Shown: one piece after another, positions 18,588 through 29,506 of the stretch
Layout: each line of letters starts with the position of its first letter
How positions within the stretch are numbered: position 1 is the stretch's first letter
NCBI GenBank assembly: GCA_965208435.1
Contig: OZ242337.1
Span: forward strand, 1,422,100-1,454,099
Direction: 5' to 3'
DNA: 32,000 nucleotides
Source of the DNA: Candidatus Aldehydirespiratoraceae bacterium
Lineage (GTDB): Bacteria > Actinomycetota > Acidimicrobiia > Acidimicrobiales > Aldehydirespiratoraceae
Notes under the pieces: model-generated
Told to the model about the DNA's origin: nothing
What the model saw: only the letters and a program-made list of their open reading frames with translations
The model's database searches: none
Translations under genes and position numbers: made by a program

Positions 18588-19739
18588 CTAGATCAAGGGC
18601 TGAGGTACCATCCATAGATTTTCGGCGGACCGCCGAAAGAAACCCGCGGGATGCTGTTCTTGCGCCGCCTTCATACGTTCGGCATTCAAGTTCTTTGGGT
18701 TTGCTTCGGTCATTCGAAGCGCTTGAAGACCACCGCAGACTACTTTCGCCGAATACCAACCGAGCCTTTGCGCTCCAATAGGCAACCGGGGTGTTAGATC
18801 CACTGCAAAGGCTGGTCCAGCGGTGCGTTCCATCTCGTTCGCAAGTTCAGCGAGAGTCAGTGGTCGTCCATCTGTGTGATTCGACGCGGGCGGCACGAAC
18901 GCGTCAACCCACTCCCGGAGCGACTGATTCGCTTCCTCAGAAGTCCAGTACTTCGCGCGAGTGAGGTCATCGACAACGTGCCGTGGCGGCACCTGGCCAT
19001 GGGCCGTGAAAACACCGCGGAGCACGCAAAGGACCTGGAGGGCCTCACGAAGCGCTCGGCAACTACCCTCGAGACTTGAGTATGAGATCGCGGCACCTAC
19101 CGCACTGGCCGGCGCCGGACCAATGACACAACCCACGAAAGCGCTGTACCCCGGGATTGGGGTCGCCATACGAGCGATCACAACGTCGGTATCTTGTTCT
19201 TCAGCGCTCGTCAAAAGGCGGTCCATGCTGCTTGATCCTCGGTGTTCAGCGAGATCGACTCGTTCGAGTCTGGCTTGAAGATTCCACGCGACCATCACCG
19301 CATCCCGTTCAACGAGTTCGAGCAGGCCCGACCGTATGGCGGCTTCAAGACTTGGACCGGATGCCGCGCCAGACGGCGACGGGTCAACCGTCGCATTGGT
19401 GTTGATGTCAAGTGGATAGTCCACCTCGACCTCGGGGACATCGACGGTCTGTTCCCAGTCCGAAAGCCTGAAGCCAGAATATGACGTTTCGCGGAGCGCG
19501 CTCGGAAAGAGCGAGCGGCGCTCAACCGCCTCCCCAACGCCACGCAGAATCGTGTCGTGCCGGGTCAGACCCGCCGCACCAACCAGCGCTAGGGAGTGTG
19601 CCTCGCTATCAGTTGCCCCGTTTCGGCCGATATTAATAGCAAGAGTCCACAGCCTACAGTTCTCAACGCACGGCGGGTAGAGCGTGGCGCTGCTGGCCAC
19701 ACCTACCGACGGCTCCAGGGTTTCGAGGTATTTTATCAC
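18588..19739 (-). CDS. YcaO-domain protein (ATP-dependent backbone-amide activating enzyme)
   Basis: 383 aa. GVGEAVERRS, SGAASGPSLEAAIRSGLLELVERDAVMVAW and a Pro-rich C-terminal tail (...WMVPQPLI) fit the YcaO pattern. The GTG start overlaps the upstream gene's TGA (GTGA at 19736-19739). Confidence 0.8.
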   Translation of the reverse strand: MIKYLETLEPSVGVASSATLYPPCVENCRLWTLAINIGRNGATDSEAHSLALVGAAGLTRHDTILRGVGEAVERRSLFPSALRETSYSGFRLSDWEQTVDVPEVEVDYPLDINTNATVDPSPSGAASGPSLEAAIRSGLLELVERDAVMVAWNLQARLERVDLAEHRGSSSMDRLLTSAEEQDTDVVIARMATPIPGYSAFVGCVIGPAPASAVGAAISYSSLEGSCRALREALQVLCVLRGVFTAHGQVPPRHVVDDLTRAKYWTSEEANQSLREWVDAFVPPASNHTDGRPLTLAELANEMERTAGPAFAVDLTPRLPIGAQRLGWYSAKVVCGGLQALRMTEANPKNLNAERMKAAQEQHPAGFFRRSAENLWMVPQPLI

Positions 19740-20995
19740 GTCGCCCCGTTCTCGGAAGCTCTCGGCACTCCAACGGATGCTTCATGCAGAATGGCTTCGA
19801 CATCCTCAACCGTGAATCGGCTCAGCACAGGGCGCGGGGCACCCCAGCGATCAATGATCGTTTCCGCCAGCGTGTGGATTTCGGCTTCAGAGAAATCTAG
19901 GTCGGTGCCTGATGGGTGACGTAGCAATTGCTCAAGCTCCTCAGCACCCGAAAGACCGAGTGCTTGAGTCACCTCACAGACCCTACCTGGAAAGCCCCAC
20001 CGGTCGTCGCCGGTCACAACGCGCCGCAGCCAAGGGCCGACTAGCGCGCTGGTCGCCTTGACCTTCCTGATTCCGGCGATCGTCGCCATTTCGTTGGCGA
20101 CGAACCACAGGGGCGATCCGATCGGAGGTCGCCCCTTCAGGGCAGCAGAGGTGTGCGTCGATGCGCTCAGCCAACCAGATGTAAGACGAGCATCGGTATC
20201 ACACAGTCCGGTTTCGGGGAGGCGCAGCATCAGCGCCAGCGATCTGAGGAGACTCTCTGCGACGATGTCTGGGATCGTCAGCTTGTACGGCGTGTTAACC
20301 ACCGGGCCGAGGATCCGCACGAATGCCTCGAACAGCCCCTCCCAAACGGATGTCGCGCTGAGCGTTGATGTTGCAACGCTGTCCAGAATCGCCTCATCAA
20401 AGTGTAGAGATCGTCCCCGGAGCAACAGTCTCTGATCCTGGATCCTCAAACAGGCAACAGAACTCACCTCACTCCCGGTGCCCACCGTTGTCGGAATCGC
20501 TACGAACCAGCGATCATCTCGGTGAGTCCGTTCGACGGTCAACAGGCTGCTTCGCTGTGCTTGCTTTCTCCATCGCCCGATCTGGCTCGGACTCGTGCTC
20601 GCGATGCGCGCGAGTTTTGCTACATCAAGGGTGTTTCCACCGCCGATCGCCAGCACCGTGGTTGGCTTGAGATCAGCCAACCAACGGGCAACCCTTTCGA
20701 TTTCGGACAGATCGGCATCCGGCGCGACTTCAATAACCGGACCCCGGTAACTATCGCTGAGCCACGGGCCGAGCAATGGCATGCGGCTGACCACCTTATC
20801 AACCGCGACCGCGTCAAGGTTCACCGTTGCGAGTGCTCGAAGAATCGAGTTGTCGCCGACCGTGAGCTTTTGACTGATCTGTTGCCAAGGTTCGCCCGGT
20901 TGGCGTCGAGCGACATCAAGTTTACGTCGCAAGTACGTACTCCACCGCTTCGAACGCAAGATCCAGCATTTCATCAAGTTCCTCCGAGGACGCAA
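19736..20995 (-). CDS. Iron-containing alcohol dehydrogenase / dehydroquinate-synthase-like enzyme (candidate oxidative decarboxylase)
   Basis: 419-aa ORF with LAIGGGNTLDVAKL and IPTTVGTGSEVS. The longest ORF overlaps the aminotransferase 3' end by 74 nt, so the true start is uncertain. The in-frame ATGs I located are at 20995, 20974 and 20782. Confidence 0.7.
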   Translation of the reverse strand: MRPRRNLMKCWILRSKRWSTYLRRKLDVARRQPGEPWQQISQKLTVGDNSILRALATVNLDAVAVDKVVSRMPLLGPWLSDSYRGPVIEVAPDADLSEIERVARWLADLKPTTVLAIGGGNTLDVAKLARIASTSPSQIGRWRKQAQRSSLLTVERTHRDDRWFVAIPTTVGTGSEVSSVACLRIQDQRLLLRGRSLHFDEAILDSVATSTLSATSVWEGLFEAFVRILGPVVNTPYKLTIPDIVAESLLRSLALMLRLPETGLCDTDARLTSGWLSASTHTSAALKGRPPIGSPLWFVANEMATIAGIRKVKATSALVGPWLRRVVTGDDRWGFPGRVCEVTQALGLSGAEELEQLLRHPSGTDLDFSEAEIHTLAETIIDRWGAPRPVLSRFTVEDVEAILHEASVGVPRASENGAT

Positions 20996-22178
20996 CGAAT
21001 GCGGGAACCAATTGAATGCAGGACGGTCCGGGCTGAACGATTACCCCGCGGCGTAACGCCTCAGTGACGATCTCGCCTACTCGTTGTGGCTCAACGATCG
21101 TCCCTTTCTCATCATGGAGCACAACCGCACGGAATAGCCCGGTGCCGCGCGTGCCTGCAACAAACCGGTTTGAAGCAGAACGCTCAGCGAGCCCGTTGCA
21201 GAGCTGCTCGGCTAACGCCTGGCGTCGCGCTTCAGCGCCGTATTCGATGTGCTGTTGGATTGAGGCGATCATTGCAGCACAAGACGGGGGGGTTCCAGCC
21301 TGCGTCTCGCCATGCACGAATGCGGCGTCGGCGGCGGAGAAGCGCTCACTGACGCGTTCCGACCAAAGAACGGCTGAGGCAGCAGCGGCGCCATTGGTCA
21401 GAGCTTTGCTGAGAACCAACACGTCGGGAGTCACTGGCCAAGTTGAATGCGCGAATAGAGGACCGGTGCGGCCAAACCCTGTGGCGACCTCGTCGGCGAC
21501 AACCAGGACTCCGTACTGTCGCTTCGCTTCAAGGATTTCAAGCAACAACTCCATCGGAGGTTCAATCGCCCCCGAGCCAAGCAACGGCTCTAGCACGACG
21601 GCGGCTACCGAGTCGCCTGAATGGGCAATGAGTCGTCGAAACTCGTCGGCAGATCCCACAGCAACGTGGCGCACATGTCGCTGGTCAGCCCCGTACAAGA
21701 GCTGACCGAGATTTTCTCCTGAAAGCGCCACAGCTCCGAGCGTCGTACCGTGGTAGCTGCCCTTCATGCTGACTACCAACCGGCGTTGGTGCGCCTGCTC
21801 TAGGTTCCAGAACTGCCGCGCAACCTTGATCGTCGCATCAATAGCGGCCCCACCAGATGTCGCAAAGAGGACACGTTGGAAATTGGGCCCGGCTAGCGTC
21901 AGCAAGAGATGGGCCGCCTCCTCGGCAAATCTATGGTTGTAGCGAAAGAGTGTCAGGTATGAAGCTTCGATGAGGGAGGAGTGCACCGCGTCCGCGACCT
22001 GGCGGTTCCCATAGCCAAGGCTGACGTTCCAGAGACCGCTCGTCGCACATAGGCGTCTTTGGCCGTCCAGAAAATCAACGCGGACGCCATGTGCACTGAC
22101 GGCCATTCGCAGAGGGGGCGAAGAAACACTCGGCGGCGTGAAGAACTGAACCACCGAGCTCTCGGTATGCTCACTCAT
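20922..22178 (-). CDS. Class III PLP-dependent aminotransferase
   Basis: 418 aa. SGLWNVSLGYGN, ATSGGAAIDATIKVAR, VVADEVATGFGRTGPLFA and VLSKALTNG (PLP lysine). Its start overlaps the methyltransferase stop by 8 nt. Confidence 0.88.
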   Translation of the reverse strand: MSEHTESSVVQFFTPPSVSSPPLRMAVSAHGVRVDFLDGQRRLCATSGLWNVSLGYGNRQVADAVHSSLIEASYLTLFRYNHRFAEEAAHLLLTLAGPNFQRVLFATSGGAAIDATIKVARQFWNLEQAHQRRLVVSMKGSYHGTTLGAVALSGENLGQLLYGADQRHVRHVAVGSADEFRRLIAHSGDSVAAVVLEPLLGSGAIEPPMELLLEILEAKRQYGVLVVADEVATGFGRTGPLFAHSTWPVTPDVLVLSKALTNGAAAASAVLWSERVSERFSAADAAFVHGETQAGTPPSCAAMIASIQQHIEYGAEARRQALAEQLCNGLAERSASNRFVAGTRGTGLFRAVVLHDEKGTIVEPQRVGEIVTEALRRGVIVQPGPSCIQLVPAFVASSEELDEMLDLAFEAVEYVLAT

Positions 22179-29187: not shown

Positions 29188-29367
29188 TCAGGTGACCGCT
29201 ACGCCCAACGCAACGACAGCAAAGCCGATTACAATGCCGGTGGCCAGGCCCGCAAAGAACGAACCCCAGCCCCAAGGGGCCTCAAGGCTCTCCATTGGTT
29301 CCATCTGTAGCGATAGCGATGCGGTTTCAACATCGACGCTAGCGGGGGCCAAGTCAACGATAGTCAT
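29188..29367 (-). CDS. RiPP precursor peptide 1 (59 aa, ends in Thr)
   Basis: GGGGAGGTGAAA precedes the ATG at 29367. Translation: MTIVDLAPASVDVETASLSLQMEPMESLEAPWGWGSFFAGLATGIVIGFAVVALGVAVT*. The 86-aa track ORF has an implausible Cys/Arg-rich extension upstream of the SD. Confidence 0.8.
   Translation of the reverse strand: MTIVDLAPASVDVETASLSLQMEPMESLEAPWGWGSFFAGLATGIVIGFAVVALGVAVT
29254..29313 (-). repeat. 60-nt block identical to 29028-29087
   Basis: Checked base by base. Confidence 0.95.
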
Positions 29368-29477
29368 TTTCACCTCCCCTCTAGTGGTAGGAAGTGCGGA
29401 ATTCGGGCAACAGCAACGGAGGCAAGACGCTGGAAAATAGCGGGGCATCTCTTTCGGAAATGTCAGGAATACCTACG

Positions 29478-29506
29478 ACTATATGACTTCTCTGTGTGTC
29501 GCGCAA
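29478..29506 (-). promoter_or_regulatory. Candidate promoter of the RiPP operon
   Basis: On the minus strand: TTGCGC (29506-29501), a 17-nt spacer, TATAGT (29483-29478), about 110 nt upstream of the first precursor ATG. Confidence 0.3.

Follow-up and report, generated by a model that had tools for sequence, protein, structure and literature searches.

A YcaO-containing daptide gene cluster, probably inactivated by an IS1380-family insertion, in an uncultured member of the Acidimicrobiia

The stretch of DNA analyzed here, which we call the window, comprises 32,000 nt from the genome of a Candidatus Aldehydirespiratoraceae bacterium (Acidimicrobiia; assembly GCA_965208435.1, contig OZ242337.1, positions 1,422,100 to 1,454,099 of the forward strand), and carries an eleven-gene operon for a daptide, a type of peptide that is made by ribosomes and modified after translation (RiPP). 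With a probability of roughly 85%, we read this locus as a daptide biosynthetic gene cluster (BGC) of the azuritide type that includes a YcaO gene, was acquired horizontally and has been inactivated by the insertion of an IS1380-family insertion sequence (IS) into the methyltransferase gene dapM. An earlier, sequence-only reading of the same DNA had proposed a new hybrid RiPP subclass. That claim is wrong, because the combination of YcaO and daptide genes has been published and the chemistry of the YcaO enzyme, DapY, is known (Dommaraju et al., ACS Cent Sci 2025, PMC12670281). By descent the locus instead belongs, as a divergent member, to the daptide clusters that include a YcaO, but its copy in this genome is disrupted by the IS.

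YcaO had not been counted as part of the daptide class either, but Ren et al. (2023; bioRxiv 10.1101/2023.03.08.531785) already list it (PF02624) among the genes that frequently co-occur in daptide BGCs, with YcaO-encoding clusters as a major subgroup. The function of DapY has been shown in vitro and in vivo, with the pathway reconstituted from the clusters of Thermobifida fusca and Streptomyces azureus, and what follows on its chemistry is from that work (PMC12670281). DapY acts only after the diamine has been installed, and by an ATP/Mg2+-dependent cyclodehydration converts the monomethyl-diamine to a C-terminal 3,4-dimethylimidazoline (Diz, −49 Da from the unmodified core). If DapM is omitted in vitro, DapY yields 4-methylimidazoline (Miz, −63 Da), and since DapM cannot methylate Miz, the monomethyl intermediate is the branch point. 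Of the four azuritides made in vivo, three have a Diz terminus and one has the dimethylamine (Dmp), and Miz was not observed for any of them. The published shifts, −49 Da for Diz or −63 Da for Miz, thus replace the −18 Da (azoline) or +16 Da (thioamide) that had been expected for this locus.

The daptide operon and its YcaO protein

All eleven genes were found, in the claimed order, on the minus strand at 18588-29367, based on the open reading frame (ORF) listing and direct reading of the window: two precursor genes (dapA1, dapA2), a gene for a small membrane protein, dapT1, dapT2, dapP, dapB, dapM, dapD, dapC and dapY. The upper boundary, previously placed at 29506, was moved to 29367, since homologues begin at MTIVDLAP. 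From dapA1 to the YcaO gene the successive gaps are +46, +91, +9, +2, −4, +12, −4, −8, −53 and −4 nt, so that the tiny gaps and overlapping stop and start codons described before run from +91 to −53 nt; such small distances between neighbors fit translational coupling. Three genes (dapP, dapC and the small membrane ORF) were refined by start-codon analysis and comparison with homologues, and the gap values for dapT2/dapP and dapD/dapC were recomputed with the refined starts at 27180 and 20974.

Profile searches were made with Pfam and NCBIfam, using model-specific cut-offs in bits, and they bear out the assignment to the daptide type: NCBIfam daptide models score above cut-off for DapD, DapP, DapB and dapA2. 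Specifically, dapD (20922-22178) encodes a class III pyridoxal phosphate (PLP) aminotransferase that matches daptide_amino at 493.9 bits (cut-off 450) and Pfam Aminotran_3 at 224 bits, and is 46% identical to TfDapD of T. fusca. The product of dapP (25612-27180), an intramembrane HExxH/M50 leader peptidase of 522 aa, matches daptide_HExxH at 315.7 bits (cut-off 300); its ATG overlaps the stop codon of the permease gene as ATGA, and the homologues are likewise 522 aa long. We also note that the C-terminus of DapP (about 160 aa, window 25612-26100) reaches past the end of the daptide_HExxH profile match. Next in the operon, dapB (24592-25599) encodes the daptide RiPP recognition protein, at 161.8 bits with daptide_RRE (cut-off 150). 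The AlphaFold2 model of the whole protein is poor (mean predicted local distance difference test score, pLDDT, 54.8; 7 sequences), and only the C-terminal topology and the identity of the top matches were used. In residues 257-324 (pLDDT 69-86) three strands precede three helices, and the top structural matches are RiPP recognition elements (RREs), namely the lasso-peptide protein TbiB1 (probability 0.99) and 6jx3, followed by PqqD and CteB, with Foldseek E-values that are not significant. The RRE-like C-terminus attributed to this 335-aa protein is therefore upheld by the profile score and by the C-terminal topology. Finally, dapC (19736-20974) encodes an oxidative decarboxylase of the Fe-ADH family, 412 aa, with a Pfam Fe-ADH (PF00465) match of 60.6 bits (cut-off 31.3) and 31% identity to TfDapC; a Shine-Dalgarno sequence, GGAGGA, lies upstream of its ATG, and the gene overlaps dapD by 53 nt.

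The last gene, dapY (18588-19739), encodes a daptide-associated protein of 383 aa whose identification as a YcaO was confirmed by a Pfam YcaO match of 74.9 bits (cut-off 25.7) and by structure. The AlphaFold2 model is of high confidence (pLDDT 89; predicted template modeling score 0.90), and every one of its 41 significant matches in the PDB is a YcaO structure, including LynD (Foldseek template modeling score, TM, 0.72) and the M. jannaschii YcaO (TM 0.70). The motifs GEAVER, PSGAASG and ELVERD line up with their counterparts in LynD and TruD, and ExxER and ExxERD are invariant in the alignment. The gene was rightly counted as part of the operon: its GTG start overlaps the TGA stop of dapC by 4 nt (GTGA), and all nine loci examined with close YcaO homologues (78-93% identity) keep the operon, with YcaO as the last gene and the same 4-nt overlap. 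Chance adjacency was rejected on the strength of this overlap together with the conservation across relatives.

The protein aligns end to end with both characterized DapY enzymes, at 32% identity to SaDapY of S. azureus (E about 1e-37 to 2e-38) and 33% to TfDapY (E about 1e-34). The two reference sequences were machine-read from Table S4 of the supporting information of PMC12670281 and may contain small errors; they are 44.7% identical to each other. The daptide-linked YcaO proteins of Paenarthrobacter (P0011) and Cellulomonas (P0020) are 31-33% identical to TfDapY and SaDapY, about the same distance as for the window protein. To cover more distant homologues, we aligned the YcaO to one genome per species, which gave at least 49 loci, at 29-36% identity; no close relative of the window species was among the matches listed. 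In 46 of these 49 loci, dapD (41-53% identity) and dapC were found within 10 kb by tblastn with the window proteins, and dapP was also present in nearly all of the 46; two of the three exceptions are on truncated contigs. Homologous clusters therefore do keep the YcaO gene beside the others, among close and distant relatives alike. By homology to these DapYs, the window YcaO is predicted to convert a peptide ending in the diamine (Dap) or its monomethyl form (Mmp) to Miz or Diz, respectively.

Two other kinds of YcaO system were considered and rejected for this protein. An azoline-forming cyclodehydratase of thiazole/oxazole-modified microcins (TOMMs; SagBCD/LynD type) is disfavored by a score of 81 bits with TIGR03604, for which the cut-off is 219, and by predicted cores without Cys and with few Ser/Thr. 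A thioamide-forming YcaO/TfuA system is disfavored by the lack of a TfuA domain in the operon ORFs and by a score of 30 bits with TIGR03266 (McrA-glycine thioamidation), for which the cut-off is 365. The Pfam and NCBIfam searches of the operon ORFs likewise returned no E1-like/Ocin-ThiF partner and no flavin mononucleotide (FMN) dehydrogenase.

The insertion in dapM and the history of the locus

The S-adenosylmethionine (SAM) methyltransferase gene that the sequence-only reading had placed in the operon is present but not intact, being split by an IS1380-family element of 1613 bp (22633-24245, plus strand). The 5' fragment (24246-24595) encodes the N-terminal part with the SAM-binding motif and matches positions 4-89 of the daptide_MTase profile (84.4 bits), while the 3' fragment (22171-22632) matches positions 96-236 (83.7 bits); the N-terminal half also matches Pfam methyltransferase domains. 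Together the fragments contribute 350 + 457 = 807 nt, which equals the intact gene of 268 aa. The element was identified from its transposase (ORF 22754-24067; NCBIfam transpos_IS1380 280 bits, cut-off 180; Pfam DDE_Tnp_1_4), which is oriented against the operon, and has imperfect terminal inverted repeats, CCTGGATCCACCGGTG and CCTGAATCCACCGATTCGGTG. We mapped the junctions by aligning the window to dapM of two related loci, L004 and L005, in which the gene is intact (268 aa). Both flanks of the element overlap positions 7108-7112 of the intact dapM, and the alignment reveals a 5-bp target-site duplication, ATTAG, at 22628-22632 and 24246-24250. No further copy of this IS was found within the window. 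Not all core genes of the daptide cluster are thus intact in the window. The insertion places 1.6 kb between dapB and the downstream genes dapD, dapC and dapY, and because these three lie downstream of an element oriented against the operon, a polar block is likely.

Related loci show other lesions. In L056 (4826-7562), dapM carries an independent insertion about 295 bp from the window site (window-equivalent ~22336-22340), by a different IS1380-type element of about 1.9 kb that is 66-70% identical to the one in the window. In all four of the loci L055 to L058, a deletion of about 655 bp (loci ~2150-2420; window-equivalent 28996-29651) has removed both precursor genes and joined the upstream region to what is left of dapA2, its final 30 nt; the genes for enzymes and transporter remain intact, with the exception of dapM in L056. 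In L001 and L002 the ABC ATPase is called at only 162 aa, possibly due to a frameshift. The second insertion in dapM and the loss of the precursors in sister strains suggest relaxed selection.

Several observations suggest, but do not prove, that the cluster is an accessory, horizontally acquired island, as had been reasonably proposed. Without the IS, its GC content is 59.3%, compared with 64.4-65.7% in the flanks; the reported direction of the difference therefore stands, while its size is smaller than had been claimed. The cluster is also flanked by IS elements. Direct repeats of a His_Phos_1 fragment (about 430 bp) lie on either side of the cluster in L005 (626-1054 and 12717-13252) and L004 (1483-1918 and 11781-12364), and also in L055 and L057, and in L005 an RHH-Fic pair is repeated as well, which suggests an island between two copies of its target. 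The upstream His_Phos_1 copy is replaced in the window by IS debris. In L001 (contig of 3,545,623 bp), whose DnaK is 96% identical, the cluster is 85% identical at the nucleotide level and lies elsewhere on the chromosome, with an N6_N4 methylase gene on one side and prs-rplY-pth-mfd on the other. The distribution is also patchy: of about 18 large contigs with DnaK at least 94% identical, only about 5 were seen to carry a close YcaO homologue. The DnaK of the window itself is 95-97% identical to proteins labelled "MAG: Acidimicrobiaceae bacterium", which places the host among uncultured Acidimicrobiia.

The IS debris reported next to the locus is indeed there, at the 5' flank (29842-30984), where a truncated IS1380-type transposase ORF (29842-30657, plus strand) that covers only positions 5-187 of the 435 of DDE_Tnp_1_4, the N-terminal half, is overlapped by an HTH_23 ORF (30373-30984, minus strand). 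The region resembles nested IS debris.

Downstream of the cluster, the gene order is unlike that of the closest relatives: the window (8232-17655) has a ROK regulator and an amino-sugar/ABC operon between His_Phos_1 and dnaK, whereas in L004 (11800-21152) the dnaK operon precedes the ROK gene, which indicates a local rearrangement. Further along, between the dnaK-grpE-dnaJ operon and the operon with ROK, glucosamine-6-P isomerase and ABC sugar-type genes, is an ORF at 8232-9347 (minus strand, 371 aa) with a hydrophobic N-terminus resembling a signal peptide and no match in Pfam or NCBIfam. It falls in a sharp low-GC patch (8000-10000) of 45-53%, in surroundings of about 64%.

Precursors, predicted products and competing explanations

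As had been described, Gly, Ala, Val and Ile abound in both precursors, each of which has a C-terminal Thr. DapA1 (29188-29367; 59 aa, MTIVDLAPASVDVETASLSLQMEPMESLEAPWGWGSFFAGLATGIVIGFAVVALGVAVT) ends in GVAVT, with a leader ending in SLQMEPMESLEAP and the predicted core WGWGSFFAGLATGIVIGFAVVALGVAVT; DapA2 (28965-29141; 58 aa, MNTMELTQDVVDAEFALLSLQMEPMESLEAPWGWGSFFTGVGIGLGLVALFYVGVAIT) ends in GVAIT, with the predicted core WGWGSFFTGVGIGLGLVALFYVGVAIT. The NCBIfam profile daptide_123 matches DapA2 at 26.7 bits, above its cut-off of 25, while DapA1 stays under cut-off with daptide_Mpa1 and daptide_123 (20.8 and 19.5 bits). Orthologues of dapA1 were found in L001 and L005. Identity to SaDapA1 is 40% for DapA1 and, across the leader/core junction, 48% for DapA2. 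With a slash at the junction, the SaDapA1/SaDapA2 type reads EELETLDAL/WNWAEF and the window type MEPMESLEAP/WGWGSF; both window leaders carry QMEPMESLEAP, and the leader motif LQxEELExLEAL/WNW of SaDapA1/A2 corresponds to LQMEPMESLEAP/WGW.

The cores were predicted by the published rule that the leader is cut after an ELExxxxx motif (PMC12670281). Applied to azuritide 1 (Fig. S39 sequence, ending in GAVVFLT), the rule gave a recomputed mass of 2600.3, compared with the reported 2600. For the window it predicts cores of 28 aa (DapA1) and 27 aa (DapA2), both starting with WGWGSFF; read from the sequence, they contain no Cys and only 2-3 Ser/Thr. Based on these cores, the predicted [M+H]+ values for DapA1 and DapA2 would be 2717.53 and 2738.52 with a Diz terminus, 2749.56 and 2770.55 with a Dmp terminus, 2703.52 and 2724.51 with a Miz terminus, and 2721.53 and 2742.52 with a Dap terminus.

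Three further genes lie between the precursors and dapP. The small membrane protein (28667-28873) has 68 aa, as it does in L001 to L005, and no family match in Pfam or NCBIfam; it is possibly an immunity protein or a transporter accessory. The ABC transporter ATPase gene dapT1 (27926-28657) matches Pfam ABC_tran at 102.5 bits, and its top NCBIfam match is a lantibiotic-protection ABC ATPase. The ABC-2 type permease gene dapT2 (27177-27923) is kept in all close loci; it had no NCBIfam match, and in Pfam only ABC2_membrane_4 at 19.8 bits, which is under cut-off.

In an intact cluster the pathway would be expected to run as in the homologous systems. The RRE of DapB would bind the precursor leader, DapC with NAD+ would convert the C-terminal Thr to aminoacetone by oxidative decarboxylation, DapD with PLP would transaminate this to 1,2-diaminopropane, and a first methylation by DapM would give the secondary amine. 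From there, DapY with ATP/Mg2+ would activate the last peptide carbonyl, on which the secondary amine would close the C-terminal 3,4-dimethylimidazoline (−49 Da), or alternatively a second methylation by DapM would give the dimethylamine (−17 Da). DapP would cut the leader after MESLEAP to leave cores that begin with WGWGSFF, and the ABC-2 transporter would export the product. In the window the cluster is most likely silent, because dapM is split and an IS facing against the operon sits upstream of dapD, dapC and dapY; at best it could yield unmethylated termini, i.e., the diamine or 4-methylimidazoline.

Some of our data weigh against an azuritide-type cluster inactivated by the IS. DapC reaches 225 bits with daptide_DH, less than the NCBIfam equivalog cut-off of 300; the published operational criterion for DapC is a match to the Fe-ADH family in Pfam (bioRxiv 10.1101/2023.03.08.531785). 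The YcaO protein is only 32-33% identical to the characterized DapYs, and in its clade a segment of about 40 residues that follows the first ExxER motif of other DapYs is missing, so that we can only infer for it the same chemistry as for SaDapY and TfDapY. Its C-terminus, VPQPLI (P-x-P-x-I), agrees with the variant in the active SaDapY (PHPLI) but is not the canonical PxPxP; TfDapY ends in PHPLP. That the IS acts in a polar way is an assumption, and an outward promoter in the element may drive the downstream genes; a promoter/terminator scan gave counts no higher than in shuffled sequence, and is uninformative both on the operon promoter and on read-out from the IS.

Two alternatives were weighed. 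If the YcaO protein installed azolines on core Ser/Thr residues, or backbone thioamides or amidines, independently of the C-terminal daptide chemistry, the locus would be a true hybrid and a new subclass. Its top NCBIfam match is the TOMM cyclodehydratase SagD family, its top structural match is LynD, and the low identity to known DapYs and the clade-specific deletion point the same way. However, the SagD match is at 81 bits for a cut-off of 219, the operon has neither an E1-like/Ocin-ThiF partner nor an FMN dehydrogenase nor TfuA, the cores offer no Cys and only 2-3 Ser/Thr, and the nearest YcaO relatives are, among the matches listed, almost all daptide-linked, in a group that makes C-terminal imidazolines (PMC12670281). 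We regard such a hybrid as highly improbable. It is very unlikely, too, that the cluster is still active despite the IS and makes non-methylated daptides with 1,2-diaminopropane or Miz termini, which would need an internal or IS-borne promoter for dapD, dapC and dapY. DapY does convert the unmethylated diamine to Miz in vitro without DapM (PMC12670281), and every other gene in the window has an intact reading frame, but the transposase faces against the operon with 1.6 kb between dapB and the downstream genes, the promoter scan gave no signal above background, Miz was unseen in vivo for any azuritide (PMC12670281), and decay has gone further in sister strains, where another IS has hit dapM independently and the precursor genes are gone.

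A bolder joint reading, which we consider unlikely, would make the Acidimicrobiia DapY clade (383 aa, without the ~40 residues that all other daptide-linked YcaOs among the matches listed have, and at most 36% identical to them) an enzyme with a substrate rule of its own, for termini in Val-Thr or Ile-Thr, or with another outcome of ring formation, and would separately take the repeated IS hits in dapM and the precursor loss as active selection against production and not as neutral decay.

As a member of the published YcaO branch of daptide biosynthesis, the locus has little discovery value as the hybrid subclass it was supposed to be. It does appear to extend daptide/DapY clusters to uncultured Acidimicrobiia, a lineage in which they are apparently unreported: the published survey covers 1,034 daptide BGCs and places all of its 840 Actinomycetota clusters in the class Actinomycetia, and a text search of its supporting information for the string "Acidimicrob" gave zero occurrences. 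The compact, divergent DapY and the new WGWGSFF-type cores are candidates for the published C-terminal engineering platform, and the sister strains present a RiPP cluster in stepwise decay, by IS hits in dapM and precursor gene loss.

Comparison with known systems

The saDap cluster of Streptomyces azureus ATCC 14921, which makes azuritides 1-4 (SaDapA1-4, B, C, D, M, P, T1, T2 and Y; PMC12670281), has its gene set in common with the window. Both have one YcaO and no lanthipeptide or luciferase-like add-on, both have hydrophobic, Thr-terminated cores and a YcaO C-terminus of the form P-x-P-L-I, and the leader/core junctions are alike (LEAL/WNWAEF in saDap, LEAP/WGWGSF in the window). However, the DapY proteins are only 32% identical and the DapB proteins 31%, and DapY is shorter in the window clade, at 383 aa with a deletion of about 40 aa, than SaDapY at 417 aa. 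In the penultimate position the window cores have Val or Ile and the saDap cores Leu, there are two precursors rather than four, and the gene order is unlike. The window dapM is disrupted by the IS, and the host belongs to the Acidimicrobiia whereas that of saDap is a Streptomyces.

The tfDap cluster of Thermobifida fusca, whose TfDapY was reconstituted in vitro (PMC12670281), shares the DapB/C/D/M/Y core with the window, at 46% identity for DapD, 33% for DapY and 31% for DapC, but has in addition, for D-Ala formation, DapKC, which is a lanthipeptide dehydratase, and DapJ, which is a luciferase-like monooxygenase; the window lacks both. With the mpa cluster of Microbacterium paraoxydans (daptides 1-3; Ren et al. 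2023) the window shares Thr-terminated precursors, DapB with an RRE, the Fe-ADH, aminotransferase and methyltransferase enzymes, the M50 protease and the ABC transporter. This founding daptide pathway ends at the dimethylamine (Dmp), whereas the window has the extra DapY branch. To our knowledge, mpa contains no YcaO gene.

More distantly, the TOMM cyclodehydratases (LynD/TruD, McbD and the SagD family) have the same YcaO fold as the window protein (Foldseek TM 0.72 to LynD) and the same ATP/Mg2+ motifs. The window operon nevertheless has neither the fused or separate E1-like/RRE partner nor the dehydrogenase of azoline TOMM systems, and its YcaO scores far under the cut-off of the SagD family. 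The two groups also differ in the nucleophile, which for the DapY family is a post-translationally installed C-terminal amine and for TOMM enzymes the side chain of a Cys, Ser or Thr.

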